Part shown: positions 13,540 through 32,621 of the stretch, piece after piece
Layout: each line of letters starts with the position of its first letter
Numbering within the stretch: position 1 is the first letter of the stretch
Assembly (NCBI GenBank): GCA_019058295.1
Contig: JAHPZI010000018.1
Span: 9,478 to 73,477 of the forward strand
Reading direction: 5' to 3'
Length of the DNA: 64,000 bases
Source: Promethearchaeota archaeon
GTDB taxonomy: Archaea; Asgardarchaeota; Lokiarchaeia; Sigyniarchaeales; SOKP01
Notes under the pieces: model-generated
Database searches by the model: none
What the model was told of the DNA's origin: nothing
The model's input: the letters and a program-made list of their open reading frames with translations, nothing else
Made by a program: the position numbers and the translations under genes

Positions 13540-15519
13540 ATGGTAGAAACTAAAAGCGATATTTCTAAAGATAACGAGGAAATTCGAATTTTCGTTGCTG
13601 TCTGTCAATGAGGAATTAACATTAGCGAGATTATAGACTGTACTGCTCTTGTAGAATTCTCAAAGACGCTTCCGAATGTTGTTGAGGCCTCAGAATATAT
13701 TAGTCTTTGCACAGAACCGGGCGCTGAGTTTATAAAAGAAAAAATGACTGAAAGTAATGCAAATAGATTAATAGTAGCCTCTTGTACTCCAAAAACTCAC
13801 GAACCTGTTTTTAAGAGTGTATTAGAATCAATGGATTTGGACTCCTCCTACTTAGAATTTGTAAATATCCGTGAACATTCAAGCTTTGTACATCGTAATG
13901 ATAAACCAGGAGCCCAAAAAGTAGCTGAAGACGCAATTAGGTCTGCAGTTGCCAGAGCTGCAGTTTTAGAACCTATTTTGGTAAAAGAAGTTGATATTAC
14001 TAAGAAGGCCTTAATAATTGGTGGTGGAGTTGCGGGTTTAACGGCTGGAATTGATTTAGCAGAGCAAGGTTTTGAAGTCCACTTAGTTGAAAAAAACCCT
14101 ACTATAGGAGGAAAAATGGCTAAATTAGATCGTACATTTCCAACAGACGATTGTAGCATATGAATTCTTGGTCCAGTAATGCTTCAGTCTGCTAGAACTC
14201 CAGGGCTCAATCTTTACACTTATAGTGAGCTAGAAGATGTAGAAGGATTTATTGGTAATTTTAAAGTAAAAATAAGAAGGAAGGCTCGATATGTTACAAA
14301 TGATTGTAATGGATGTGGGGCATGCTTTGAGGTATGTCCTGCGTTTGGATATAACGAGTTTAACGAGGGAATGGATCCAAGAAAAGCTATTTATGTCTCG
14401 TTTGCTCAAGCTGTTCCATCATTAGCACAAATTGATATGGATCGCTGTATAAGATGTGAATTATGTACAAATGCATGCGAACTTGAAGCTATAGATTTTA
14501 ATCAAGAAGATGAAATTATTGAGCTAGAAGTTGGTTCAATTATAGTTGCTACAGGTTGGGATGAATATATACCTGAAACCGGCTATTTAGGTTATAATAT
14601 CTATCCGAATGTAATCACAGAGTTACAACTCGAAAGAATATTAGCACCGAATGGACCGACTATAGGGCATCTTGTTAGACCATCTGATGGTAAACGACCC
14701 AAAAGAATTTTATTTATTCAATGCGTAGGATCACGGGATTTAAACAAAAATACCTATTGTAGTGCTGGAGTCTGTTGTATGATTGCAATTAAAAATACGA
14801 AACTAATCAAACAACATTATCCAGATACAGAAATCGATGTTGCTTACATGGATATACGGGCTGCTGGAAAAGATTACGAAGAATATTTTACAGCATCTAG
14901 AAAAGAAGGGATAAGATATATTAGAACAAACATCTCTAAATTAAAAGATGATCCTTTAACTGGTAATATTAAAGTCATAATGCAAAATACGCTAAGAGAA
15001 TCGCTTGGATTAAAAGAAATGGAATATGATTTAGTTGTTTTATCTGCGTCAATGATGCCTGCCCAAGGAATTGGAAAAATCGAAAAAATGCTAAAACTTG
15101 AAACAAGCCAAGATGGATTCTTCAAGGAGTTTCATTCGAGATTAAATCCTATTGACACAAAAATACCTGGTATTGCGCTTGCAGGGGTTGCTCAAGGACC
15201 TAAATCTATCGCTGAATCTATTGCACATGGGAGAGCTGCGGCTTCGTCTTTAGCTAGGTTAATGTCTAAAGATAAGTATCGTATACTCTTAATTCGAGCA
15301 ACTGTTGATAAAGAAAAGTGTGCTAAATGCGGTTTATGTGAATTGAACTGCCCTTACATGGCAATTACTATAAATGATGACGGAGCTGAAGTAAACGAGA
15401 TACTATGTAGAGGATGCGGATCATGCTTAGCAAACTGTCCTTCTGAAGCTATAACCCTCAGATATTATCGAGAACCTCAATATGAAAAACAAATAGATGC
15501 AATATTAGAAGAGATTTAG
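13540..15519 (+). CDS. hdrA: Heterodisulfide reductase subunit A-like flavoprotein, selenoprotein with two Sec (UGA 13609-13611 and 14161-14163), 659 aa
   Basis: One frame from ATG 13540 joins track ORFs 13744..14163 and 14179..15519. UGAs fall at conserved Cys positions: VAVCQ-U-GINI (HdrA CxCGxNI) and DRTFPTDDCSI-U-ILGP. Also GGGVAG FAD motif, ferredoxin CxxCxxC motifs, QCVGSRD. Confidence 0.95.
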
Positions 15520-20007: not shown

Positions 20008-21423
20008 TTATTCACTCAAAAGACCAAATCTTTTAAGACCTTCCCTCATTTCGGCTTGAAATGGACCCGGAGTTCCTTTTATGAATGCTTCAATAATATC
20101 TTGATCTTCTATCCTATTTGAGGAACGCTTTTTAGCCTTTTCCTCTGCAAGAGAAGAAATAGCCATCCTTGCCATGGATTGAAATGCCGGAGGGGATAAT
20201 TGTATAAGCTCCTCAAAGACATTTGCAGTTTCAGGATCCCAGTCTAATCCCTTTTTTGTTTCTTCACTAGGCTCAGAAAGATTAAGCCCAAATTCACGAC
20301 TTGTAATGATGTTTTTTAAATATTCCCTTAAGGACTGAACATAACGTGGAGATTTTTCTTGATCAAGAACCACTGCTTTTTTTGCCCATTCTTTACAATA
20401 GTTACAGTCATCGCACATTGCTACACAATCTTGCTTTTTAAAGAAGTCGATAAAGCCATCTAGTTTGGTGTTGTCAATATATAATTTAGATTTTGATTCT
20501 TTTCCAATAGTTTTAGTTATTCCTATATTAGGATCTTTCTCTTCCAATCCACCGTGAGACATCGAAAATCCTTGAATAATATCAACAAGATTACCTTCAT
20601 ATTTTCGTGATGAAAAAGCTTTTACAGACCTTAGGATCCAATCAGTGGTCATACGCCTTCCCGCGATTTTAAAATCAGTAATCCCAATCTCTTCATAGTG
20701 AACTAAATCTTCTGGACGAACCCAACGACATTTCAATACTTCTTCTGGTGTAGAAAATTTAATGATACTACAATTGATTATACATGTATCTACATAATTA
20801 CGTTCAAATTGTTGATATGTCTGTGAAGCATGTCCTAGGGTATTATAATGATAATATCTAAAAGGACATTGATATAAACATCCATCAGTTAAAAGTAATA
20901 CGATCTTACATTTTACTGCTTTCTTTATTTTACTGAGCGTCTTAAAATCACGATTAATCATTATATCCGGAGTTATTTCATCCGCCCCAAGCATCTCATA
21001 AAATTTAGCTCGATTCACACTATTTACGTGTGAGATGGTAGAAACTCGGACTTTAAGCTTAGGAAACTGTTCTTTAATCAGCTGTATTAAAAAGGGGATA
21101 GTTACAATTACGCTATCGCTACCAATATCACTAATCCATTGAATATACTCGATAAGCTTGCTATGATAATGCGAATCATACTCAATATTGTTCATACAGG
21201 GAGCATTTAGCAAATAAGAAAATTTCATTTTTTTCTTATGTACTTTATCGATATATTCTGCTATATCTCCTTTTGAAATGTCTGGTAATAAAAATGAAGG
21301 GCGCCCTCCTCCCACTATTGAATGATTAGAAACTCCATAGAGATCTGTCACAGGATATTTAGCCAATTCTTCTATTAAGCTTAAGTCCCAATTAGTTGCA
21401 ACATAAAATTGAATTAATATCAC
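20008..21423 (-). CDS. U32-family (UbiU/UbiV-like) Fe-S protein with C-terminal PCP_red/DUF2621-like domain
   Basis: GGGRP, YLLNAPC, GCLYQCPFRYYH..HASQ..C..C, WVRPEDL, FKIAGR; additional C..C..C..C cluster; C-terminal LDWDPE...TPGPF module. Confidence 0.85.
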   Translation of the reverse strand: MILIQFYVATNWDLSLIEELAKYPVTDLYGVSNHSIVGGGRPSFLLPDISKGDIAEYIDKVHKKKMKFSYLLNAPCMNNIEYDSHYHSKLIEYIQWISDIGSDSVIVTIPFLIQLIKEQFPKLKVRVSTISHVNSVNRAKFYEMLGADEITPDIMINRDFKTLSKIKKAVKCKIVLLLTDGCLYQCPFRYYHYNTLGHASQTYQQFERNYVDTCIINCSIIKFSTPEEVLKCRWVRPEDLVHYEEIGITDFKIAGRRMTTDWILRSVKAFSSRKYEGNLVDIIQGFSMSHGGLEEKDPNIGITKTIGKESKSKLYIDNTKLDGFIDFFKKQDCVAMCDDCNYCKEWAKKAVVLDQEKSPRYVQSLREYLKNIITSREFGLNLSEPSEETKKGLDWDPETANVFEELIQLSPPAFQSMARMAISSLAEEKAKKRSSNRIEDQDIIEAFIKGTPGPFQAEMREGLKRFGLLSE

Positions 21424-21522
21424 CTATTATTTTGGGTTATTTTTTGTTTATGTACATTTTTTTTCTTATTTAATACTTAAATAAAAATATTTTAGATTTA
21501 GATTATTTTCTTTTTAGCTTTT

Positions 21523-23559
21523 TCATTTATTTGCTATTTCATGAGCTTTTGCGTTAAGCGGTAATAAAGGTGCACATGCCATAAGTTTATTAACATCTCC
21601 TTCTACGATATATGTTCCTGCCATCGTTGCTTGAATCGGATCTGACTCTCCCGAATTAACCTTTTGGATGGTGGCAAAATCCGTTTTATGAATAATTTTT
21701 GGGGCGTCAGGTCCTGAATATTCACCCATCCCCCAATCCATCTTATCTTTATCAACAAATTGCCAGTAATTCATTTCAGGTTTATCACTTATATTATATT
21801 GAAAGATTAATGGAGCAATAGGTTCTAATAAAGGCTTTAAATCCGGCAATTCATTATAAGCTTTCATGAAACGCATAAGATATGCTTCCCATTCTTCCTT
21901 TGTATCCAATTTAATTATCACCTCCTTTAATTTTTGTTTTTCGTCTAATTTAGATTCTTTATTTACTTCTCCCACCTTTTTTACCTTCTGAGAGATGAGT
22001 TCAGTACTTAACGGGAGAGATGTTATATATTCAATCTCATCTCCCGTCATATATTGATTTATATTAATATTCTTTTTAATTAAAAAATCGATATAATCAT
22101 GTTTAAACGGTTGAGGAACTAATTCAATTATTATAGCTATCAATAAATCCTTAGTTACCCTCTTTAATTCTTGCTTTTCTGCAGTTCTTTCTGCAGTAAA
22201 TCCAATTCCCTTGGTTGCAGCCTCATGCATCTCTCTGGGAATTAGGTCCATTACTTCTTTCAAAAATTTTTTTGCATCATTATCCCAAGGAATCCCAAAA
22301 TATGTTCCTATTTCGGCTGATTTAACAGGACTTTTAAGTTTTCGCTCTTCTTTGGATAAAAACATATCTCCTGTATTTAGATATTTTAAGAGATATGCCA
22401 TATATTCCTTATATGATTCTGTAATTCCTCCTTCAGGTTGAGAATAAGCTATTTTTGTTAGACTATGACAATAAAAACATGTGATTCCACAAGTTTCTAC
22501 GCATCTAGCACCTCTATGTGGCATATTTTCAATGAATGTAGTCAGCTTGTTCCCATCTAATACTGCATCAAATTCGGGCACGCTTAACAGTAGACTTTGG
22601 TTATCCGTGTCAGTTCCCATTTTAACTTGCCTAGCGGAAAATTCATTGAATTGATTACCAGCTAAAATTAACGGATCAGATTCGAATGAATAACCATTAA
22701 AAATTTTACCGAGGTTACCATTGGAATTCTTATAACTATAAGCTTTTAATGCATTAAATAACCATTTGGTCCCATATCTCCTTCCAGATATCTTAAAATA
22801 ATCAATACCAATCTCAATATATTTATCAAGATCTGCTGGTTGAATCCATTTAGACATTACTATCTGTTCTTGATTAAAACATTTTTGATTCTGACAGGCA
22901 ATAGTAGCCCAATCATTATAATATCCTTCTAAACAATCATGGGTTTGGCTTGCGTGGGAGCATTCAGTATAATGAAAAAAACGAAAAGGGCATTCATTAA
23001 GACAGCAATCGTTAGTCAATAATTCTATATCACACTTTACTGCTTTTCTAATTTCTTCTAAAAGGGGAAAATTACGATTAAGCATTATAGATAAAGTCAA
23101 TACACCATCAGTACCAATTATTTCTTCCCATTCCAAAGCCCGGGTAAGAGAATTGACTTCAGCTATTACAGAAACCTTTAATTTTAATTTAGGATGATAG
23201 GTTTTAGCAAATTGAGCGAGATAAGGATCTGTAACTGTTAAATATTCTACGCCCAAATCATCTAACCAGTCTAATTCGTATAGTGCTTTTGTTTGTTCTT
23301 TGGAATTAAATTTATAATATCCAAGACACTCACCATTCCATAGCCATGTAAATTTGAAATTTAAATCATGAACTTTATTAATAAATTTTTCAATTTCAGC
23401 TTTATCTCGTTTAGCCATTAAAAAAAAGGGTCGCCCAGATCCAGTGAAACTCATGTCGGAAGCGCCATAAAAATCATTTATAGTTTTCATTAAATGATTA
23501 TCATTTTCTATGAGAGTCAATAAATCTATTTTCCAATTGCATGCTAATGATATTCTCAA
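21523..23559 (-). CDS. U32-family protein fused to PCP_red/DUF2621-like domain and C-terminal SCP2 lipid-binding domain
   Basis: GSGRP, CCLNECPFRFFH..HASQ, WIQPADL, FKISGR; internal IPWDND..VPQPF module; C-terminus SGESDPIQATMAGTYIVEGD typical of SCP2. Confidence 0.85.
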   Translation of the reverse strand: MRISLACNWKIDLLTLIENDNHLMKTINDFYGASDMSFTGSGRPFFLMAKRDKAEIEKFINKVHDLNFKFTWLWNGECLGYYKFNSKEQTKALYELDWLDDLGVEYLTVTDPYLAQFAKTYHPKLKLKVSVIAEVNSLTRALEWEEIIGTDGVLTLSIMLNRNFPLLEEIRKAVKCDIELLTNDCCLNECPFRFFHYTECSHASQTHDCLEGYYNDWATIACQNQKCFNQEQIVMSKWIQPADLDKYIEIGIDYFKISGRRYGTKWLFNALKAYSYKNSNGNLGKIFNGYSFESDPLILAGNQFNEFSARQVKMGTDTDNQSLLLSVPEFDAVLDGNKLTTFIENMPHRGARCVETCGITCFYCHSLTKIAYSQPEGGITESYKEYMAYLLKYLNTGDMFLSKEERKLKSPVKSAEIGTYFGIPWDNDAKKFLKEVMDLIPREMHEAATKGIGFTAERTAEKQELKRVTKDLLIAIIIELVPQPFKHDYIDFLIKKNININQYMTGDEIEYITSLPLSTELISQKVKKVGEVNKESKLDEKQKLKEVIIKLDTKEEWEAYLMRFMKAYNELPDLKPLLEPIAPLIFQYNISDKPEMNYWQFVDKDKMDWGMGEYSGPDAPKIIHKTDFATIQKVNSGESDPIQATMAGTYIVEGDVNKLMACAPLLPLNAKAHEIANK

Positions 23560-23563
23560 AATT

Positions 23564-24715
23564 TCACCTCTGTATTACTCCATTTTCCATAATTTTCATT
23601 TTTTCATCTATTAATCTTAAGATTTTAGCTTTCTCTTCTGCATTTCCATTCCTTAGCTTTTTGGAAAATTCAATGCAATAATTATTTATTTCCTTTTCTG
23701 AAGGATAGTGAGAATCATAAGAGTAATTATTGCAAAATTCATTAACAATTTCAGATTTCAACTCAAATAGAGAATTTTTAACATTATCATAAGGCCAGAA
23801 TTCACCATAAGGTTGAGGAATATTGATAAATTCATTAAAGTTAACTTTTAATTCTCTTTGGGTGTAGCTTCTAATTATTTCAATTATTTTTTTAGAAGTA
23901 AATCCCCCAGTATATAGAGAAAATGTATTATATCCAAGATCTTCATACAATTTTATATTACTTGGTGAAATCCATCCAGCTTTCAAGAGATTTTCAGGTT
24001 TCTCTAACCTTTTTTTCCAGCAGTAGAGTAGTGGGTAATCAAACTCATCTTCAACATCGGATAATTCTTCTTGATTTGAAAAAACAGGGGAACCTATTGT
24101 TCTATGACTTTGTAAGTTATGATGTTGATACCAATGAATACACCCCCAATTACACCCAATATTCAATGGTAAGATATAATCAAGATCTTCAGATCCTTTA
24201 AATTTGTTCTTAAGCTTAATAAAATTTTCTAATACTTTAAAATATCTCAAGATATCAGGATTTAAAATAATAATATCAGCACCAATTTCAAAAAAGATTT
24301 TCCCACGATTTAATGAAGTGACACATTGTGAATATGATAAGTAAATTTTCATCATTGGAGCATTTTCTTTAAAAAATCCAATATTATTTGGAGATGATAA
24401 TAATACATCTTTGTATCCCAACTTCTTTAAATTTTGAATTAAATCTTTTGTAGCTCTATATTGTTGAAAATGAGCTTCTAAATTCCCTTGACAAGTTGAA
24501 TCCAAACCTGCTATTGGAATTATTCCGTTTTCTTGAATTATTTTAGTATATTCTTCAAATTCTTTAATTGATGGGAGATTTCTTGGAAGAAATATTGAAC
24601 TATTCCCAATAGGATTTTGTGGCACGTGAACAATAATATGACTAACTGGTAATTTCTCTTTATTAATAAGAGCAATTAAATCCTTATGATAATCTCCATC
24701 AATTATAAATTTTAT
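23564..24715 (-). CDS. Divergent U32-family protein (apparent ATA start at 24715)
   Basis: LNIGCNWGCIHWYQHH, GWISPSNI; frame open 30 codons upstream of the track start, giving IKFIIDGDYHKDLI, which parallels the N-termini of the two adjacent U32 paralogs. Confidence 0.72.
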   Translation of the reverse strand: MKFIIDGDYHKDLIALINKEKLPVSHIIVHVPQNPIGNSSIFLPRNLPSIKEFEEYTKIIQENGIIPIAGLDSTCQGNLEAHFQQYRATKDLIQNLKKLGYKDVLLSSPNNIGFFKENAPMMKIYLSYSQCVTSLNRGKIFFEIGADIIILNPDILRYFKVLENFIKLKNKFKGSEDLDYILPLNIGCNWGCIHWYQHHNLQSHRTIGSPVFSNQEELSDVEDEFDYPLLYCWKKRLEKPENLLKAGWISPSNIKLYEDLGYNTFSLYTGGFTSKKIIEIIRSYTQRELKVNFNEFINIPQPYGEFWPYDNVKNSLFELKSEIVNEFCNNYSYDSHYPSEKEINNYCIEFSKKLRNGNAEEKAKILRLIDEKMKIMENGVIQR

Positions 24716-24757
24716 TCTAAAATCACTTTTTCTGTTTTTATCTTTTTAAAAAAAAAT

Positions 24758-25930
24758 TTAATTATAAGATTCAAGTCCCGCCTTACAACCCATTGATAAA
24801 AAGTCTACCATCGTGCCGTTATAATCGTTCTCAATCTTGTAATAAAATCCTTTTTGAGAGAATGTAGCGCCCCAAATAAATTTCTTAGAATCGCTTTGGA
24901 GAGGTGTTTTTTCTATGAAATCCCTCATTAAAGGATGAAGATGGGAAGGAACTTCTTTTGGATAATCACATGTGATCCCAAAACATAGTCGCTCGATTTT
25001 ATTTGAATCCCAACTAAAAGTATAGTTAAGATGTGCTGCTTTACGACATCCCTCCATCACCTCTTTGGACGCAGGCTCGAATCCTAGATCTTTCACCAGT
25101 GAAACGCAACTCTCATAAGAAGACTCAGCTGGTTGTTTAAGCATGAAATAAATATTAGTCGTATTATGAAGGAAATCGAATGCAAAAAGACTAAATGAGG
25201 TTAATCCATGCTTATTGAAGTAATCCTTATATGCGTTCATACTCTCTGGAATTGATTTCATGGAATAAATTGGATCAATTGAACCGGGCACAACAAATGG
25301 CCAAATTTTTGATAACCCAGTTTCTGCATCAACATCTACTCCATATCCCATTATCTCGAATGAATTTATAGCTTCAACAATCATTTTATGGATAGGATGT
25401 CCATTTTTTTCTAGTAATCCTTCATTAATTGCAGTTGTATATGGGTCTGGATTATGAGGGATAAAAAATTCAACATATCTTACCGCTACATCTCTTTTTC
25501 CAATGGGTTTAGCGGTGGTTCTTATGGATACGGGAGCTCCTCTAAAAAACTTTTCATAAGTATTAAAGGATTTCCAAATTGCATCCTTATTACATTTTAC
25601 ACCAGCGATATCGCAAATTTTAGCCATATCTTCAACCATTTTATTAAGATCGGTATTACATTTAAAATCACTTTTCACTTTAGCCATATATCTATCATAG
25701 TCCACTCCAAGTTTAGTTAAGTCCTCAATCATTGTTGGTTGAAATGCAGGTGGCGTTACTTCAAACAACGCAACTACTAAATCAACTTCTGCGACTTCTG
25801 TTCCACTTCTTTCCATACATTTTTTTTCTGCTCCTTCGAGGAGTGCAGGTTTTACGGCGGGGCGTACCATCTCAGGTACTCCTAATAACACTTTTTCAAA
25901 AAGTTGTTTTACTTCTGGTTGCCATTCCAT
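24758..25930 (-). CDS. ABBA-family aromatic prenyltransferase (NphB/CloQ-like) with N-terminal PCP_red/DUF2621-like domain
   Basis: DPYTTAINEGLLEKNGHPI, YGVDVDAETGLSKIW, DFLHNTTNIYF, YTFSWDSNKIERLCF, YYKIENDY match NphB/CloQ-type motifs. Confidence 0.85.
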   Translation of the reverse strand: MEWQPEVKQLFEKVLLGVPEMVRPAVKPALLEGAEKKCMERSGTEVAEVDLVVALFEVTPPAFQPTMIEDLTKLGVDYDRYMAKVKSDFKCNTDLNKMVEDMAKICDIAGVKCNKDAIWKSFNTYEKFFRGAPVSIRTTAKPIGKRDVAVRYVEFFIPHNPDPYTTAINEGLLEKNGHPIHKMIVEAINSFEIMGYGVDVDAETGLSKIWPFVVPGSIDPIYSMKSIPESMNAYKDYFNKHGLTSFSLFAFDFLHNTTNIYFMLKQPAESSYESCVSLVKDLGFEPASKEVMEGCRKAAHLNYTFSWDSNKIERLCFGITCDYPKEVPSHLHPLMRDFIEKTPLQSDSKKFIWGATFSQKGFYYKIENDYNGTMVDFLSMGCKAGLESYN

Positions 25931-25969
25931 TATGTTCTACCTCTTTTTTTTTTTTATTTTTTTTTTTAT

Positions 25970-27394
25970 TTATTGTAAATATTTAGCAAATTGAACTTGG
26001 CTCATTTCTGCAAATCCCTCTGGATTATTAAAACCAAGCCCAGGCATCATCCATCTTGGATTTGATTCCCCATACTTTCTTACTATTTGAAATAGATCTA
26101 CTTCCTTGATTTTTGGGGAAATATAAAATTTAGGTTTTAAGAGATTTTCTCCTTTTTGGATAACCCCTTCTTCTTCAGCAATTTGCTGAAGAATTGTATG
26201 AGGATAAATTCTCATACCTATAAAGATGATTACATCTCCATCGCCTTGCCATAAATTTCCTTGATAACTCTCCATAGTCTCAAGTCGATCTAAAGAAACT
26301 TGGATTGTTTCTAGAGTTTCTCCTGGACCTCCAACAATAACATGCAATAATTGCTCAATTTCCAAATCTATACACTTCTTTGACGTAAGAATCGCGTCAT
26401 CTGGAGATCTCGATTTATTCATATTTTTTAACATCTCTTCTGAGAGAGATTCGATACCAGTTGCAAAATGAACCGCACCACTCTCTTTCATGAGAGGCAT
26501 TAAATCTATAAATTTTTTGTTGGGGACATAATTTACGCCCCAGTTTAGGGCTATTTTATTATTAATTATTTCTTGACAGGTATTTTTTACGTGATTATAA
26601 TCCAAATTGAAAACACTGTCCACGATAAATATATTTTTAATTCCGTAATTATTTACAATTAAATCGAGTTCTTTAGCAATATTTCCGGGGGATCTATATC
26701 GAACATTAGAATCCTCAATATACCTATAACTACAGTAAATGCATTTCATAGGACAACCACGTTTAGTTTGAATATTACCCCAAACTGGACCTGATTTATT
26801 CATTGGATCTATAAGATAGGCATCATTTTCCAGCAATTCCCTTGTTGGTATTGGGAGATCATCTAGATTCTCAACCCGCCAAGGTGGTTTATGATGATAT
26901 TTTCCTTTTTGATCTATAAAACAAATACCCTTCTCAATTGTTCTAGGATCGTCATCGTTTTCAATCTTTTTTAAAAATTCCGCAAAGACATATTCACCAT
27001 CCCCAATTACCCCTATATTATGATTTAAATCTCTAAGAATTTCCTCTGAAAAAATTGAAAAACCAGCACCTCCTAACACAATTGGAATTTCCGGTTCTAC
27101 AAGTTCTTTAATATATAAAATAATATTTTTTACTGGTAAGTAAAAGAATAGATTTCCCGGGTATGTTGTTGAGTCAACATTACGAATTGAAATCCCTATT
27201 AAATGAGGATTAAAATCATAAATTACTTTTGAAACATCTTTTTTATAATCATTACTAAGAGTTAAATCAAGCAATTTAACCTCATGACCTTGACTAAGAA
27301 GGTAAGCTGCAAGATATGCTTCTCCTAAGGGAGGGACCATAACATGAACAATCTCCCTACTCCCAGAGATTATTAATACACGCAATTTAATCAC
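25970..27394 (-). CDS. Cobalamin-binding radical SAM protein (TsrM-like / 'lipid biosynthesis B12-rSAM' subfamily)
   Basis: PPLGEAYLAA, GISIRNVD, IQTKRGCPMKCIYC, DSVFN, GGPGET, GMRIYP, LLKPKFYISP. Confidence 0.88.
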   Translation of the reverse strand: MIKLRVLIISGSREIVHVMVPPLGEAYLAAYLLSQGHEVKLLDLTLSNDYKKDVSKVIYDFNPHLIGISIRNVDSTTYPGNLFFYLPVKNIILYIKELVEPEIPIVLGGAGFSIFSEEILRDLNHNIGVIGDGEYVFAEFLKKIENDDDPRTIEKGICFIDQKGKYHHKPPWRVENLDDLPIPTRELLENDAYLIDPMNKSGPVWGNIQTKRGCPMKCIYCSYRYIEDSNVRYRSPGNIAKELDLIVNNYGIKNIFIVDSVFNLDYNHVKNTCQEIINNKIALNWGVNYVPNKKFIDLMPLMKESGAVHFATGIESLSEEMLKNMNKSRSPDDAILTSKKCIDLEIEQLLHVIVGGPGETLETIQVSLDRLETMESYQGNLWQGDGDVIIFIGMRIYPHTILQQIAEEEGVIQKGENLLKPKFYISPKIKEVDLFQIVRKYGESNPRWMMPGLGFNNPEGFAEMSQVQFAKYLQ

Positions 27395-27417
27395 TCTTAG
27401 TCTTTACAAATTTAATT

Positions 27418-28830
27418 TCATTCAATTAATTCGATTTCTTCTTCAATTTCTTCTTTTTGAGAAACATCAACTTCATGTTCATGATCATTTTCATGCCAGC
27501 AGAACGGAAACGATCCAAAGAAATCACCCGTGATATATTCCGCAGTTACACGACATCCCCCACCGCAATATTTTAAATGATGGCAAGAGGCACATTTTCC
27601 TTTAATCTTCTTTCTATCACGAATATCCCTGTAGAGCTGTGAATTTAATACATCTTCAAAATCATCCTCCAATGCATTACCAAGAGTCAATGTTGTAGGA
27701 TATCCCGCAGGGAATATTGTTCCATCTATACCAATTCCCATCATTGTCCTACAAGCTAAACAACCTACTCCCCATTCAATCGCTGCCAATTCTTTATCAT
27801 TTTTTGGATGTTCCATAAAGGGCATCATATCATATATTTCATAAGCAGGTAATGTACCTGCCTTACCTTTCCTTATCGTCTCAATAGCATGTTTGTATTT
27901 GAAATCATACATTTTTTTATATTCTTCTGAATTAAGACCGATTTCATCCCAAAATTCAGCAGCCCGATTTTGTTTCACTACACATCGAAAATATGGTTGT
28001 GATCCCCATTTTTCTGATAATATTTTAATCTCTTCTAATTCATCAATGTTTTGCTTCATAATTGTAATTGAAGAGCATACAAATATTCCATATTTCAAAC
28101 AAAGATCTATTGCTTTCTTAGCATAATCTAAGGAATTGGGAAACCCACGAATCTCATCATTTTTCTTAGGATCAACACTGTCAAAACTAACAAATATATG
28201 ACTAATATTGTTATCTTTACACATTTTGGCGAAATCTTCATCGAATCTCACTCCATTGGTGATAAGAGCGTGAATATAATCCTTCTCTTTACAAAATCTC
28301 ATAATCTCACCAATGTCTTTTCTCAAAGTGGGCTCACCACCAAACCATATAAAGCAGGCATGTCTTCCTTGTTTTCGCAAACCTGTTTCAACATTTTCTA
28401 TTATTTGACACCATTTCTCTGCTGATAATTCTGGCCGTGCTATTTGATCATCCGCAGCACAGTGAATACATTTTTGATTACATTTGTCAGTCAAATACAT
28501 GGCAAAGTGTATATTTCCGGGATGAAACCCCCGCTCTAGTTTTTGCCATGAAACCTTCAATCGATCCTTGATTTCCTTCAGTTCTATATAACGTTCGACA
28601 TCAATTCCTAATTTTGTTAAATCTTCTACCATTATTGATTTAAATGCTTCAGGAATTATGTCAAAAATACCCAGAACAACATCAGCATCATTAATATAAG
28701 CAGCATTCCGATCAAGACATCTTTTTTCTGCAGCCTCTATGATTAATGGTTTCACGGAAGGACGAAATCCTTGTGGCATTTGTTCTACTATTCTACCAAA
28801 TAATTTCTGTGTCTCCTTTTCCCATTCCAT
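27418..28830 (-). CDS. Radical SAM/SPASM protein with N-terminal PCP_red/DUF2621-like domain
   Basis: CNQKCIHC, GGEP, TNG; SPASM GCLAC..KCASC..CGGGCR..PFCW. Confidence 0.9.
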   Translation of the reverse strand: MEWEKETQKLFGRIVEQMPQGFRPSVKPLIIEAAEKRCLDRNAAYINDADVVLGIFDIIPEAFKSIMVEDLTKLGIDVERYIELKEIKDRLKVSWQKLERGFHPGNIHFAMYLTDKCNQKCIHCAADDQIARPELSAEKWCQIIENVETGLRKQGRHACFIWFGGEPTLRKDIGEIMRFCKEKDYIHALITNGVRFDEDFAKMCKDNNISHIFVSFDSVDPKKNDEIRGFPNSLDYAKKAIDLCLKYGIFVCSSITIMKQNIDELEEIKILSEKWGSQPYFRCVVKQNRAAEFWDEIGLNSEEYKKMYDFKYKHAIETIRKGKAGTLPAYEIYDMMPFMEHPKNDKELAAIEWGVGCLACRTMMGIGIDGTIFPAGYPTTLTLGNALEDDFEDVLNSQLYRDIRDRKKIKGKCASCHHLKYCGGGCRVTAEYITGDFFGSFPFCWHENDHEHEVDVSQKEEIEEEIELIE

Positions 28831-28842
28831 AGAATTTCACCT

Positions 28843-30210
28843 TTAAGCACAATTATCATGCTCATGGTCATCATCATGCCAACAAAACGGGAGCTCAGCT
28901 AGAAAATCACCAGTTACGGTTTCAGCATGGACCCTACAACCCCCACCACATAAGTCAAGATGATGACAAGTAGAGCATTTCCCTTTTATTTTTCGATCTC
29001 TAATTTTTTTAAACATTTCGGTTTCCATAATTTCATCCCAACTTTGCTCAAGAATGTTGCCTAAGATTAAATCAGAAGGATAATCACAAGGGAATACATC
29101 TCCATTGGTATCAATCCCAGAAATTGAGCGGCAAGCTTGGCATCCTGTGCCCCATTCGATCGCAGTCCTTTCTTCATCATTTACAGGACACTCCATAAAT
29201 GGCACCATATCCCATGTATAGAATTTATTAAGCGATGAAGCTTCTCCTTTTCTGATAGCTTCTATAGCATGTTTATATTTGAAATCATAGAATTGTCGAT
29301 ATTCATCCATATTTAAGCCAATTTCGTCCCAATTTAAATCGGCCGAACGTTGTTTGATCAGGGGTCTGTAAAAGGGAGTTACTCCTCTAGAGTTAAAATA
29401 TTCCCTTAATTTATCTAATTCATCAAAGTTCTCTTTTTGTGCAGTTACATTAGCAATTGTAAAAAGTCCATATTTTGCAGCTAAATCTAACGCTTTTTCC
29501 CCTGCTTCGTATGCTTTTGGGTGCCCTCTAATTTTTGCAGCCCGTTTGGGATCTGTACTATCATAACTAATAAAAACATGGCTCATTTTAGCATCTGCGC
29601 ATATTTTCGCCAATTCATCATTAAATAAAATTCCATTGGTCGCAAGTGATTGATAATAACCCTTCTCACCGCAATATTTAATTAAATCTTTAAGATCTTT
29701 ACGAATTGTAGGCTCCCCGCCAAACCATATATAACATCCTCGACGACCACGTTTTCGTAAGCTTTGTTCAAGATCCTCAATAATTTCAATCCATGTTTCA
29801 ATGGGTAATTCTGGACGTTTATCCATTACCGAAGCAGCACAATGAAGACAATTTTGATTGCATCGGTCAGTGAGATATATAGTAAAATGATAAACCCCGG
29901 GTAAAAAGGCACCACTAATTTCATCCCATGTACGTGCATATTTTGTTCTAATTTCTGATAATTTTACATAGCGATCTGTATCAATATCTAATTTTTTTAA
30001 ATCTTCGACTACTGCTGGTTGAAATGCCTCGGGTGTTATCTCAAATAGTGCAGAAAGCAAATCATCTTCACTTACAAATCCAGAATTCCTAAGTCGTGCT
30101 GTTTTTTCAGCAGCTTCTCGCAACATAGGCTTAACAGAAGCACGAAATGCCTCAGGTACTTGATCTGTGATTTTTCCAAACATTTGTTCCATTTCTATAT
30201 TCCATTCCAT
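28843..30210 (-). CDS. Radical SAM/SPASM protein with N-terminal PCP_red/DUF2621-like domain (paralog of 27418..28830)
   Basis: CNQNCLHC, GGEP, TNG; SPASM GCQAC..FPCD..KCSTC..CGGGCR..PFCW. Confidence 0.9.
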   Translation of the reverse strand: MEWNIEMEQMFGKITDQVPEAFRASVKPMLREAAEKTARLRNSGFVSEDDLLSALFEITPEAFQPAVVEDLKKLDIDTDRYVKLSEIRTKYARTWDEISGAFLPGVYHFTIYLTDRCNQNCLHCAASVMDKRPELPIETWIEIIEDLEQSLRKRGRRGCYIWFGGEPTIRKDLKDLIKYCGEKGYYQSLATNGILFNDELAKICADAKMSHVFISYDSTDPKRAAKIRGHPKAYEAGEKALDLAAKYGLFTIANVTAQKENFDELDKLREYFNSRGVTPFYRPLIKQRSADLNWDEIGLNMDEYRQFYDFKYKHAIEAIRKGEASSLNKFYTWDMVPFMECPVNDEERTAIEWGTGCQACRSISGIDTNGDVFPCDYPSDLILGNILEQSWDEIMETEMFKKIRDRKIKGKCSTCHHLDLCGGGCRVHAETVTGDFLAELPFCWHDDDHEHDNCA

Positions 30211-30318
30211 ATTTTTTTCACCTTATTATGATTTTTTACTCTCTTTTTTCTAAAAATAATTCATTTTTAAGTTTAAATTGCAAATTAATTTTAAAATCAT
30301 AGGTAATAACAAATTTTA

Positions 30319-31002
30319 TCATTTTTTTCCCCCCTCCCGTATAAAATGTTTATTAAAATCAGCAAAATTATTAATTTTGGGATGGCAATAATGATTGATT
30401 AAACGAAAAATCAAAAAACTTTCAAAATCAGAATGATAACAGAATACTTTGAGATTATTGTAGCGATTATTTAATATATACTTGGTTTTTCTATGCAAAA
30501 TTCTGTTTTGAATAAAATTAATTCTATAAATTTTTCTTCTCAAATTGTCATTAAAATTATGAATTCTCTCATTTAAGCTATAATCTCTTTTATTTCGATC
30601 TCCTTTATTCTTATTATCGAGATATTCTATCGATTCATCATTTAGTCCAAGAGAACCCAAACTTATATAAAAAAATATTTTTGTATCTTCATTTAAGAAT
30701 GCATTTTTAACATAATGATAAAAAGCCGTATCAATATAACAAATGATATTATAAATTATGATGATGTCAATCAAATGACCGAGGCTAAACTGGATTGTGT
30801 GAGATTCGTGAGGCAAAAATCCTAATATATTGATGTAAGGTAAAATAGGAATGAAAATTGACTTGCCAGAGGTAATATATTCAGTTAATAAAGAAGAAAA
30901 AACTGGAACATCTCTTAAAAACATGAAAATGAACAAGCTCGTGAGATAAGAAAAAATAACGCTAAAGATCAAGACTATTTTCAAAATTTTAAGTTTATGC
31001 AC
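30319..31002 (-). CDS. Hypothetical membrane-anchored protein
   Basis: Hydrophobic N-terminal segments, GAGGA RBS before GTG; no motif recognised. Confidence 0.45.
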   Translation of the reverse strand: MHKLKILKIVLIFSVIFSYLTSLFIFMFLRDVPVFSSLLTEYITSGKSIFIPILPYINILGFLPHESHTIQFSLGHLIDIIIIYNIICYIDTAFYHYVKNAFLNEDTKIFFYISLGSLGLNDESIEYLDNKNKGDRNKRDYSLNERIHNFNDNLRRKIYRINFIQNRILHRKTKYILNNRYNNLKVFCYHSDFESFLIFRLINHYCHPKINNFADFNKHFIREGGKK

Positions 31003-31130
31003 GTATTTAATCCTCTCTCTATCATTAATAATTGATTATAATCTTAGAGTTATTGAATAATGAAAATACTGAAGCATTAGTTATAAATATAACTGTGATT
31101 AAATAATCAGATAATGCAATAATTAAATCC

Positions 31131-32621
31131 TTATTTATCTCTCTTTTTAGGATATTTCGAACTAGATGTTAGAAGCATAGGTGCAGTGCTTAAAAATAAT
31201 AGCATGTTTGCATAACGAATAAAACCTCCAGAAAAATGTTTCTTATCATAGTTAATTACATTATAAAAATAGGATGGTTTAGTTCGCTTGAAAATGTTAA
31301 CAATCTGCGGAAAAGAATTAAATTTTAGTTTTATTTTAAATTTTTCAGGAGATTCATGGGCAGGAGAACCAGGGAAAATATGATAAGGTTCACTCATAAT
31401 TGTAATTGGTTTGAAATTGGAATTACCATATTTTAAAAGGCATTTAGTCGCAAAATGAAAATCCTTAAGAATATCAAACCGATTTTGGAAAGGAAGACCG
31501 ATAGTTAACCATATCCGTAATAATATTTGAGATAAATTTGCATTTTTTATTAAATCATTAATTTGACTTTCTGGAAATTTAAATGTTGGATCACAAGTTT
31601 TAGCTATTTTTTGCTGAACTTTAGCTGATAATGTTCGAGGAGAAATACTGATTGATGAATATCTACGAGCAAAAGTCTTCTCAAAGATTCTCCACATTTC
31701 TTTAGGAAAGGGTAGCCGCCATATCTCTAAATCTCCACTAATATCAATTTTTTCCTTTTGAATCAGCCCAAATAATTTTTTCCAATATTTTAAATTAGCA
31801 GGATATGTACCATGTCCGAAAAAGACACTTGGAACTTTATAATTGTCGAGAATATTGTGGAGATCTTCTATTATTTTTTCTGGACTTCTGAGAACGACCT
31901 CATTTCGACCCGTTAGTTTTTGCTGAGCTCTTTGACCTCCTCCACAAAAAGGACAATTAAATGGACAGCCCCTTCCAATTGGAAGATTGAGAGAGATTCC
32001 CATAATCTTTCTGCTATACTCAAGATATTGTTTTGCATTATTTAGAAGTGATACATTAATAAAATTCAAATCATCCAATGTTTTTGCTGTATAGGAAAGA
32101 GAATTAACTTTTATGTGTTTAGAGGTATCTCGATAAGATAAATTGGGAACAGAATCTAATGATTGATTTTTATTAATCTTTTGAACATATTTTAAAAATG
32201 GAACTTCCCCTTCGCCTCTAATTATACCGTCAATTTCTTTATAGTATTTTAATAGTTCACTATGGTAATATGAAGCACTAAAACCTCCAAGAATTACATT
32301 AGCATGGGGATTTACTTTTTTTACGATTCTAGCAACTTCAATAGCACCATTTGCATTATGTATCCAATGTAAATCTATTCCACATACATCAAAATTAATA
32401 TTTTTAAGAAAGTCGGCTAATGACCAATTACGATTTAGATATTGCTCTAATGGATAATTTATAATTTTAACTCCAAAACCCCCTTTCTCAAGCAAATCGG
32501 CAATGCTAAAAACACCCATTGGAATGAATAAATATTCCCCTCGTTTAAATTTGGATCTTTTATTATTAATAGGTTTTACTACTCTAGGTGGATGGATGAG
32601 TAAAACATCGTAGCTTTTCAA
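31131..32621 (-). CDS. Cobalamin-binding radical SAM protein (CloN6-like N-terminus)
   Basis: DVLLIHPP, GIDLHW..A.E.A..VK, GGFSASYY, RGEGE, GRGCPFNCPFC. Confidence 0.87.
   Translation of the reverse strand: MKSYDVLLIHPPRVVKPINNKRSKFKRGEYLFIPMGVFSIADLLEKGGFGVKIINYPLEQYLNRNWSLADFLKNINFDVCGIDLHWIHNANGAIEVARIVKKVNPHANVILGGFSASYYHSELLKYYKEIDGIIRGEGEVPFLKYVQKINKNQSLDSVPNLSYRDTSKHIKVNSLSYTAKTLDDLNFINVSLLNNAKQYLEYSRKIMGISLNLPIGRGCPFNCPFCGGGQRAQQKLTGRNEVVLRSPEKIIEDLHNILDNYKVPSVFFGHGTYPANLKYWKKLFGLIQKEKIDISGDLEIWRLPFPKEMWRIFEKTFARRYSSISISPRTLSAKVQQKIAKTCDPTFKFPESQINDLIKNANLSQILLRIWLTIGLPFQNRFDILKDFHFATKCLLKYGNSNFKPITIMSEPYHIFPGSPAHESPEKFKIKLKFNSFPQIVNIFKRTKPSYFYNVINYDKKHFSGGFIRYANMLLFLSTAPMLLTSSSKYPKKRDK

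Follow-up and report, generated by a model that had tools for sequence, protein, structure and literature searches.

A helical domain of the PCP_red/DUF2621 superfamily on five enzymes of one Asgard archaeal operon, and its possible role as a per-enzyme adaptor

Five of the seven enzymes encoded by one Asgard archaeal operon carry the same ~80-residue helical module, which belongs to the PCP_red/DUF2621 superfamily though it falls below the cut-offs of both Pfam families. We tentatively favor the reading, at a probability of roughly 0.4, that the module is an autonomous, non-catalytic helical adaptor, one per enzyme, that aids in dealing with a shared hydrophobic aromatic intermediate or with the SCP2 carrier of that intermediate. 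PCP_red/DUF2621 is a widespread domain without an assigned function. In Asgard archaea, the prokaryotes most closely related to eukaryotes, the module here marks five enzymes of one uncharacterized, apparently oxygen-independent route leading to a prenylated aromatic lipid. The literature we searched (on PCP_red, DUF2621, and the gene combination of the cluster in Asgard archaea and other archaea) contained no description of the function of the domain or of this cluster.

All seven genes, and with them the module copies and other domains described here, lie on the (-) strand. Two SPASM enzymes carry the module at residues 1–81: P0007 (28843..30210, 455 aa; module, Radical_SAM, and SPASM by Pfam), with copy 1 at 29968..30210 (HMM domain E 2.7e-26), and P0006 (27418..28830, 470 aa; module, radical SAM, and SPASM by Pfam and NCBIfam), with copy 2 at 28588..28830 (HMM E 2.7e-25). 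The best NCBIfam match of P0007 is AhbD/NirJ-like, at scores far under the cut-offs of those families. Residues 1–81 are likewise occupied by copy 3 (25688..25930, HMM E 2.4e-27) in P0004 (24758..25930, 390 aa), an ABBA aromatic prenyltransferase whose PTase_Orf2 domain spans residues 94–378 (Pfam E 1.6e-53). Copy 4 (22051..22293, HMM E 1.1e-15) is internal to P0002 (21523..23559, 678 aa), in which Peptidase_U32 (residues 96–275, Pfam) is followed by the module (residues ~423–503, flanked by polar K/E-rich linkers) and, directly downstream, by an SCP2 lipid-binding domain (residues 572–666, 21562..21846, Pfam E 4e-4). At the C-terminus of the U32 protein P0001 (20008..21423, 471 aa; Peptidase_U32 E 1e-11), residues ~393–468 form copy 5 (20020..20247, HMM E 4e-23). 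The two remaining enzymes are without the module by HMM: P0005 (25970..27394), with B12-binding and Radical_SAM domains (Pfam), and P0003 (23564..24625, 353 aa), a U32-like paralogue that has no Pfam match and was assigned through BLAST matches to the U32 proteins of relatives.

The HMM was trained on 75 relatives, each <40% identical to every one of these copies, and was run over a six-frame translation of the window (the whole 64-kb stretch of DNA that was analyzed), covering all 391 open frames of 40 aa or longer. It matched exactly five domains, at E 1e-15 to 2e-27, and nothing beyond them even at E ≤10. Since no further open frame scored, the window's five other B12-radical-SAM genes are without the module; searching the full assembly (79% complete) yielded no additional copies. 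The original prediction had placed five copies of one pattern on these enzymes, as fusions to three mutually unrelated catalytic folds (at the N-terminus, internally, or at the C-terminus), and had noted its absence from the other radical SAM genes. The independent HMM recovered the copies at coordinates matching within a few bases, and Pfam and HMM matches bore out both the fusions and the absences. The claim that the five segments are one homologous module was likewise upheld by their alignment, which spans ~80 residues with W3, P19, A34, E35, P60, F63, and L71 invariant, at 21–49% identity to copy 1.

In a tree of modules, the copies of the window fall into three lineages by host type: one clade mixes the N-terminal modules of SPASM enzymes and prenyltransferases, one group holds those at the C-terminus of U32 proteins, and one clade has the internal U32-SCP2 modules. 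In the last (SH-aLRT 100), copy 4 joins modules from other proteins of U32-module-SCP2 architecture. The independent HMM scores and these host-type lineages indicate that the module, judged by its sequence, is a real and old domain rather than a recent duplicate within the operon. Matches listed in a protein homologue search were Asgard SPASM and U32-SCP2 proteins (Promethearchaeota, Lokiarchaeota, Thorarchaeota, and Hodarchaeota).

Among the best relatives, about half stand alone as proteins of about 80–100 aa: 77 of the best 150 are ≤125 aa long and have no other domain, and complete free-standing module genes occur in loci L037, L038, L042, and L044, which together point to autonomy. Fused partners include ABBA prenyltransferase (PTase), U32, SPASM, LuxC, HpaB, PNPOx, methyltransferase, VOC, and FMN reductase proteins. 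Alternation between free and fused forms suggests a one-to-one pairing of module and enzyme. A Heimdallarchaeote locus (L042) has a B12-rSAM gene and then a free module gene, and the two are fused in P0150; within one bacterial cluster type, the module is free (L038) or fused to a methyltransferase (L041) or to HpaB (P0092). Position on the host is also free, since the prenyltransferase module is N-terminal here and C-terminal in G128 and P0016/P0020, the SPASM module is N-terminal in Asgard archaea, C-terminal in bacterial locus L065, and internal after LuxC in L045, and the linkers joining U32 and module are polar and vary from ~7 to 30 aa. On these comparisons of gene architecture, we regard the module as mobile and autonomous. 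It is restricted to clusters acting on greasy or aromatic substrates.

An AF2 model of copy 2 (residues 1–90, pLDDT 90.3) predicts five helices and a short, two-residue beta bridge, the ~80 residues of the module being all-helical apart from that bridge. The strongly conserved positions (W3, P19, A26, A34, A38, V46, A54, P60, F63, M67, and L71) look like core or helix-capping residues, and the conservation profile of the module reveals no evident conserved pocket or surface patch, no conserved Cys, His, or Ser pointing to a cofactor or prosthetic group, and no evident long hydrophobic or amphipathic surface helix. In the full-length AF2 model of P0004 (pLDDT 91, pTM 0.83), the linker block at residues 81–90 has a pLDDT of 69; the pTM lies between the values expected for a docked and an undocked module. 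A sequence-profile search of the PDB with a 108-row module alignment gave no significant match (the best being a histone fold at E 0.04, the Lon lid at E 0.26, and Asr4154, 2L09, at E 2), Foldseek with the module model found no PDB match at E ≤0.001, and an ESM Atlas feature search for the module produced no usable match.

Kinship to PCP_red/DUF2621, noted as a resemblance in the original prediction, held up on sequence and fold. By sequence, each of the five copies matches DUF2621 (PF11084) best, at 16.4–25.8 bits and E 1e-5 to 9e-3 (copy 5, E 1.1e-5; copy 1, E 5e-4), all short of the gathering cut-off of 27.7 bits; in every copy, the match covers model positions 54/57–137 of 139 and leaves the first ~55 unmatched. 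Some relatives do reach this cut-off (P0139, 30.9 bits; an 84-aa gene of L044 has an unmarked PF11084 match). PCP_red (PF08369) matches two of the copies at 13.8–14.4 bits against a cut-off of 32.5 and does not match the other three; its best E in a family search of the genome was 0.14. Its matches are stronger on relatives P0033 and P0121 than on the copies of the window, and the free-standing relative P0041 matches the BchZ C-terminus (positions 416–467, E 0.0013). Among ESM Atlas models, free-standing DUF2621 proteins superpose on the module at TM 0.81–0.86 over 83–86 residues, a 96-aa PCP_red protein at TM 0.62, and the BchZ tail on module residues 1–63 at TM 0.63 (63 residues, rmsd 1.5 Å), with a helix-strand-helix core in common. 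Nostoc Asr4154 (NMR structure 2L09) matches at Z 6.8 and rmsd 3.3 Å over 57 residues. BchB/ChlB crystal chains were absent among the top 50 structural matches of either VIA search, so the PCP_red link rests on the Atlas models and weak sequence matches; these are predicted models with middling scores, and the fold match to PCP_red supports membership of the superfamily rather than of the family.

PCP_red, the tail of BchB/ChlB and BchZ (protochlorophyllide and chlorophyllide reductases), resembles the module in its placement, at the terminus of an enzyme with a large hydrophobic aromatic substrate. The module differs from it in length (~80 residues versus 45 model positions, with two further helices), in the presence of five copies in one operon, and in its hosts, which have U32, SPASM radical SAM, or ABBA-PTase (PTase_Orf2) folds; PCP_red sits on a nitrogenase-like subunit, and by Pfam no module host in this operon is such an Oxidored_nitro subunit. 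To our knowledge, the C-terminal tail of BchB/BchZ is the only relative of the module to have been studied, and this tail reportedly helps to enclose protochlorophyllide bound in the neighboring half of the enzyme; a description of the BchB tail was not found in the DPOR literature searched. DUF2621 and free-standing PCP_red/DUF2621 proteins (80–100 aa, e.g., Asr4154) are, like the module, of unknown function, and differ in that the five copies in the window are fused to enzymes.

Resemblances to other small domains were also weighed. In structure, residues 1–60/69 of the module matched AAA+ lids best and most uniformly (for Rpt3, 2dzn_B, Z 8.8 and rmsd 1.7 Å over 57/57 residues); these made up all of the top 50 entries of the second structural search (Z 6.9–8.8, values under the tool's level for specificity among helical bundles). 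Such lids (Rpt3 C-domain, RuvBL, MCM, Lon, BchI) have a similar local pattern, A-E-x2-A-x2-R-G ... V ... D-L-V-x-A. We rejected homology to them: an hhalign comparison with six AAA_lid_3 domains from this genome returned a probability of 0.7% (E 0.085, 25 columns), sequence searches gave weak lid matches alone (Lon lid, as above, and RFC lid, E 0.09), and a P-loop AAA+ core is absent from every host protein (Pfam). The likeness is one of fold only and not a family assignment. Docking domains of PKS/NRPS systems are short complementary terminal helices in matched pairs, whereas the module is globular, has ~80 residues, and also occurs internally, free, and singly per cluster. An acyl or peptidyl carrier protein was rejected as well, as the 108 aligned modules have no invariant Ser that could carry phosphopantetheine at the start of helix 2 (the best position, 43, is S in 37%).

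The RiPP recognition element (RRE, PqqD-like) follows the same logic of distribution, being a domain of ~80–90 aa on several unrelated cluster enzymes, at either terminus or free. An RRE binds a shared leader peptide, and its usual slot is the N-terminus of PqqE/MftC-type SPASM enzymes, which is the slot that the module fills in the SPASM enzymes here. The predicted five helices and two-residue beta bridge are not, however, the winged helix with a three-stranded sheet of an RRE (AF2), a difference of fold on which we rejected this reading, and no RRE/PqqD family appeared among Pfam matches at E ≤10. No convincing small ORF for a precursor peptide was seen between the operon genes, although small precursors can escape notice; the sole extra frame (30319–31002) is a low-complexity, AT-rich ORF without a family. 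In contrast to RRE systems, the gene content (PTase_Orf2, SCP2, and shikimate genes) points to a small-molecule pathway.

Each copy sits on one enzyme of an apparently oxygen-independent pathway, whose most likely chemistry is the prenylation, hydroxylation, and methylation of an aromatic compound derived from chorismate to yield a quinone-like lipid. As an adaptor, the module would help its own enzyme to capture or cover the shared intermediate, whether by direct contact or through the SCP2 that carries it. The model for this is the BchB/BchZ tail, which reportedly contributes similarly to the protochlorophyllide pocket. Binding of a shared carrier or hydrophobic intermediate had been raised in the original prediction and fits the genomic contexts better than docking does; the binding itself, whether of a ligand or of SCP2, and the choice of partner are what we infer. 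The module adjoins SCP2 in every protein seen with both (U32-module-SCP2, SCP2-module-PTase, module-SCP2, and SCP2-module), and of the 48 genomes of the phylum that carry the module, 38 also have cluster-type SCP2, the module being present in all 38 genomes with that SCP2. Several module-carrying bacterial clusters have no detected SCP2, so SCP2 is not the universal partner. These clusters count against the adaptor reading, as do rSAM-SCP2 fusions that exist without the module.

The ubiquinone metabolon (SCP2 proteins UbiJ/UbiT, UbiK, and the U32 O2-independent hydroxylases UbiU/UbiV) likewise combines U32 paralogues and SCP2 in a pathway of aromatic prenylation and hydroxylation, and a small helical accessory element accompanies SCP2 in both systems. 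UbiK is a coiled-coil protein, unlike the globular module, we know of no Ubi enzyme with a PCP_red-like module, and prenylation here falls to a soluble ABBA enzyme rather than to membrane UbiA.

Several observations sit uneasily with an adaptor. Its conserved residues are of core or capping type and outline no obvious pocket, an acidic, 80-residue helical bundle is no obvious lipid binder, free switching between termini is hard to square with a lid of fixed geometry above an active site, and the fusions of tandem modules to a NuoE-like ferredoxin are not explained by substrate binding. It is possible, if rather unlikely, that the module serves as a pathway-wide recognition element in a non-peptide pathway, binding lipid-loaded SCP2 or a common handle of the prenylated intermediate so that five unrelated enzymes take turns on one carrier-held substrate. 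Such an element would be, by analogy, the small-molecule counterpart of RRE/leader-peptide or carrier-protein logic, and would represent a new function for the PCP_red/DUF2621 superfamily.

The original prediction had favored a docking or assembly tag, with modules binding each other homo- or heterotypically and gathering the five enzymes into a metabolon. This would suit a module found on five of seven operon enzymes and nowhere else in the genome (79% complete), its flexible tethers and its placement at either terminus, and the soluble Ubi metabolon around the SCP2 protein UbiJ provides a precedent. Whole-enzyme fusions, such as the two-module SPASM-PTase protein of 999 aa in locus L046, suggest that enzyme proximity is useful, and tandem modules inside one protein (P0056, P0095, and P0139) hint at pairing. 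Yet free-standing is the commonest form among the best relatives, and a tag without cargo recruits nothing; four bacterial loci of 10–19 kb (L037, L038, L041, and L063) hold exactly one module each, a reduced syntenic cluster in the same genus (G173) has only two, and a conserved surface patch is not evident. A complex prediction for two module copies from the 108-row alignment, run without controls, scored 0.01 (mark, 0.42), which gives no verdict either way on self-association. The free-standing relatives, single-copy bacterial clusters, and mobility thus argue against module-module docking, which we now consider doubtful. A passive structural element, that is, a stable helical spacer or an aid to solubility or folding that came along with its host genes and has no specific partner, seems improbable. 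The core-like conservation, the lack of residues suited to a cofactor, and the use of the module as a connector between enzyme and SCP2 in three-domain proteins would accord with it, but an inert spacer would not be kept as a free gene inside biosynthetic clusters, would not have been acquired time and again, at one end or the other, by some ten unrelated enzyme families, and would not stay recognizable across Archaea and Bacteria at E <1e-20.

Fe-S or redox enzymes are numerous among the hosts (SPASM and B12 radical SAM, U32, BchB/BchZ, FMN reductase, PNPOx, and HpaB), a NuoE-like [2Fe-2S] ferredoxin with two tandem modules is found among the relatives, and the module is acidic, as are many electron-transfer docking surfaces; one could therefore imagine that it docks a low-potential carrier (ferredoxin or flavodoxin) onto Fe-S enzymes. 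We judge such redox-partner recruitment to be highly improbable: the module is found on or next to proteins that have no use for electrons, namely prenyltransferase (among the commonest hosts, with 18 of the best 150 relatives), SAM methyltransferase, VOC protein, and SCP2, and the B12-radical-SAM enzymes of this operon are without it. Very little credence can be given to a peripheral membrane anchor, by which soluble enzymes would reach a membrane-resident prenylated substrate, even though the substrates are lipophilic and the ~55 additional N-terminal positions of the DUF2621 model, unmatched here, may form a membrane segment in the Bacillus members. Each of the five copies is acidic (pI 4.7–5.3, about 4.8; net charge −3 to −5), and pI is <6 in 65% of relatives, which is unfavorable for anionic membranes; a long hydrophobic or amphipathic surface helix is not evident, and the cluster already has SCP2 for lipid handling in solution.

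Should the module prove to be a shared adaptor for substrate or carrier, it would illustrate how soluble enzymes pass along a greasy intermediate without a membrane or covalent carrier, would supply a function for the BchB/BchZ tail family, and would offer a sequence marker for related anaerobic lipid or quinone pathways. It already connects Asgard clusters with bacterial clusters of type II PKS-like, hopanoid-like, and HpaB/HemN type. The neighbors of module genes include type II PKS genes with cyclases and a squalene-hopene cyclase, and in L046 and L063 genes of the shikimate pathway and for chorismate mutase lie beside the cluster.

The seven-protein operon on the minus strand (window 20008-30210) encodes, by Pfam and NCBIfam, two radical SAM/SPASM enzymes (P0007 and P0006, closest to AhbD/NirJ at scores far under those families' cut-offs), a B12-binding radical SAM enzyme (P0005), an ABBA aromatic prenyltransferase (PTase; P0004, PTase_Orf2 E 1.6e-53), a U32-like protein (P0003), a U32 protein with an SCP2 domain at its C-terminus (P0002) and a further U32 protein (P0001). 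To exclude circularity, the helical module seen in five of these proteins was sought with an HMM built from 75 relatives, each <40% identical to any window copy, in all open frames of >=40 aa across the six reading frames of the entire window (64 kb). Exactly five domains were matched (E 2e-27 to 1e-15), all on the minus strand: in P0007 (29968-30210), P0006 (28588-28830), P0004 (25688-25930), P0002 (22051-22293) and P0001 (20020-20247). No further open frame of the window matched even at E <= 10. The original prediction of five homologous copies on operon enzymes is thus confirmed, as is the absence of the module from the window's other radical SAM genes, since the five other B12-radical-SAM genes gave no match; the remaining assembly (79% complete) held no further copy either. 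The copies (residues 1-90 of P0007, P0006 and P0004, 418-512 of P0002 and 385-471 of P0001) align over ~80 columns, with W3, P19, A34, E35, P60, F63 and L71 invariant.

Its fold and a weak sequence signal place the module in the PCP_red/DUF2621 superfamily, and the resemblance first noted from the sequence holds at that level, with the curated Pfam cut-offs of both families missed. DUF2621 matched all five copies under its gathering score at model positions ~56-137, the N-terminal part of the model being missing from the module; PCP_red matched two of the five weakly, NCBIfam has no model for the module, and a free-standing relative matched the final 50 residues of BchZ (E 0.0013). A confident AlphaFold2 model of the module from a 108-row alignment (pLDDT 90.3, pTM 0.80) folds into five helices, and residues 2-3 are joined to 45-46 by a short beta bridge. 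In the ESM Atlas, this shape recurs in Asgard SPASM enzymes (TM 0.98), prenyltransferases (0.87), a mostly bacterial U32 cluster of 321 members (0.85), free-standing DUF2621 proteins (0.81-0.86), the BchZ C-terminus (0.63 over 63 residues, rmsd 1.5 A) and free PCP_red proteins (0.62), and also in VOC and FMN-reductase fusions.

Among solved structures, AAA+ lid domains matched module residues 1-60/69 best and most uniformly. They include the Rpt3 C-domain (Z 8.8, 57 residues at rmsd 1.7 A) and the lids of RuvBL, MCM, ORC, BchI, FtsH and Lon (Z 7-8.5); for PCP_red, the NMR structure 2L09 scored Z 6.8. The module stretch A-E-x2-A-x2-R-G...V...D-L-V-x-A recalls the helix-strand-helix motif of the lid. 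We take this resemblance as fold likeness only, because a profile-profile comparison with the same genome's AAA_lid_3 domains was negative (probability 0.7%). The module has no conserved Cys, His or Ser, and its strongly conserved positions resemble core or helix-capping residues.

Module matches are few (243 of 1.84 billion cluster representatives at E <= 0.001), and a survey of the enzymes carrying the module elsewhere, covering the best 150 of the 243, found 77 proteins of <=125 aa without another domain, 23 U32 proteins, 18 PTases, 11 SPASM enzymes, 6 proteins with SCP2 (with or without U32), 1 B12-rSAM fragment and 14 other or unknown proteins of >125 aa. Partners in this last class include HpaB, PNPOx, a SAM methyltransferase, a NuoE-like [2Fe-2S] ferredoxin carrying two modules, LuxC-module-SPASM, and HEAT with PNP_UDP_1. 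The source names of close relatives are Promethearchaeota, Lokiarchaeota, Thorarchaeota and Hodarchaeota. Within the phylum, 48/400 genomes have the module, 37 of them in the window's own family (37/134), and most of the 48 carry 2-10 copies clustered within ~10 kb. A module tree, poorly resolved with only 82 columns, places the window copies in three lineages matching host type: an N-terminal SPASM/PTase clade, a C-terminal U32 group and an internal U32-SCP2 clade (SH-aLRT 100). The five copies are therefore old paralogues and not recent duplicates within the operon.

The module behaves like a self-contained unit that is shuffled among enzymes. In orthologous PTases it is N-terminal in the window and most relatives and C-terminal in genome G128 and proteins P0016 and P0020; in SPASM hosts it is N-terminal in Asgard archaea, C-terminal in bacterial cluster L065 and placed after LuxC in L045. 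A B12-binding enzyme is followed by a free 83-aa module in a Heimdallarchaeote (L042) and fused to it in P0150. In a type of bacterial cluster made up of HpaB, Amidohydro_2, a methyltransferase and two HemN-like rSAM, the module is free in L038, on the methyltransferase in L041 and on HpaB in P0092. This conserved cluster (L038:4742-15362, L041:3-9784) also has a cupin and a 140-aa gene without known function between the two HemN-like genes; its two versions differ in what is added, a heme-oxygenase-like protein in one and a P450 with a halogenase in the other.

Copy number varies as well: bacterial loci L037, L038, L041 and L063 (10-19 kb) have a single module, and Asgard clusters have two to five each. 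The syntenic site in G173, of the same genus (L057, G173:C1:289000-308900), holds only module-SCP2, U32-module and B12-rSAM. Its flanks match those of the window, with CDP-alcohol transferase/GT2 genes at one end and PYNP/TPR genes at the other, and it lacks the PTase and both SPASM enzymes; G206 (L056) retains just one SPASM enzyme, U32-module and a free SCP2. A relative's locus, L046:5307-8306, encodes a 999-aa SPASM-PTase fusion protein with modules at residues 6-87 and 479-557.

In every protein seen with both domains, the module adjoins SCP2 (U32-module-SCP2, SCP2-module-PTase, module-SCP2 and SCP2-module). Cluster-type SCP2 occurs in 38/48 module-bearing genomes of the phylum, and 38/38 phylum genomes with cluster-type SCP2 have the module. 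SCP2 was not seen in several bacterial module clusters, and rSAM-SCP2 fusions lack the module. Relatives' clusters at L060:6145-9305, L061:7473-10512 and L062:9638-11146 encode a 536-aa SCP2-module-PTase fusion and one or two such radical-SAM-SCP2 fusions of ~500 aa, with up to three SCP2 domains per cluster; both fusion types are missing from the window.

Hosts and neighbours of the module act on greasy or aromatic substrates: they include ABBA PTase, HpaB, VOC, PNPOx, FMN reductase, LuxC/LuxE, type II PKS genes with cyclases, and squalene-hopene cyclase. In a metagenome relative of the cluster, a complete archaeal-type shikimate pathway and a chorismate mutase lie directly downstream of a U32-module gene (L046:11663-20693), and a bacterial U32-module gene has a chorismate mutase-DAHP synthase fusion one gene away (L063:7135-8268). 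These neighbours fit a chorismate-derived aromatic substrate and, by analogy with TrhP and UbiU/V, prephenate-dependent hydroxylation by the U32 enzymes. On the bacterial metagenome contig L065:3403-15729, a cluster combines two U32-module proteins and two SPASM enzymes, one of which has the module at its C-terminus, with a B12-rSAM, PNP_UDP_1, two genes of the IF-2B family and squalene-hopene cyclase; here the same enzyme set is joined to a terpenoid cyclase in place of the aromatic prenyltransferase. In L037:7252-16273, a free-standing module is flanked by a PNP_UDP_1 gene and an ApbA-like reductase; downstream of it follow a KS/CLF pair, an ACP, two cyclases and a B12-rSAM.

What the module does may be judged from these patterns. 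To our knowledge, its only studied relative is the BchB/BchZ tail, which reportedly helps enclose protochlorophyllide held in the neighbouring enzyme half. Because of this tail, the substrate theme and the SCP2 adjacency, we tentatively favour (probability roughly 0.4) a putative adaptor that would assist each enzyme in taking up or covering a hydrophobic intermediate common to them, acting on it directly or via SCP2. The fused or split association of the module with a single enzyme in each case points to a per-enzyme accessory. In the full-length P0004 PTase model (pTM 0.83, linker pLDDT 69), the module may be either packed on its own enzyme or detached from it. The original prediction was headed by a docking or assembly tag, with module-module contacts linking the five enzymes; its alternative, binding of a shared carrier or hydrophobic intermediate, is close to the adaptor. 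Five tagged enzymes in one operon, tandem modules, flexible linkers and whole-enzyme fusions such as that of L046 speak for the tag, which stays a less probable alternative to the adaptor, but free-standing and single-copy forms are so frequent that obligate docking is unlikely as a general function.

Recruitment of an electron carrier is less likely than the adaptor or the tag given the non-redox hosts, as is a passive spacer, since free module genes persist inside clusters; a role as membrane anchor sits poorly with the acidity of all five copies (pI 4.7-5.3) and is also less likely. RiPP recognition elements and ubiquinone metabolon accessory factors are distributed much like the module but differ from it in fold and defining features. 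The literature searched gave no description of the domain's function or of this cluster; our analysis adds the independent-HMM confirmation, the three-lineage history of the copies, evidence against simple docking from single copies, split forms and swapped termini, a quantified SCP2 co-occurrence, the AAA+-lid-like fold and the link to chorismate/prephenate supply.

Upstream of the first module-bearing gene lies an AT-rich gap of ~920 bp (window 30211-31130), which may be the site of the operon promoter; a promoter there may put the upstream B12-rSAM gene (31131-32621) in its own transcription unit. The gap contains a 227-aa frame (30319-31002), low-complexity and without a family, that is probably not a gene. 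Elsewhere in the window, an ORF at 14179-15519 encodes a ferredoxin domain.
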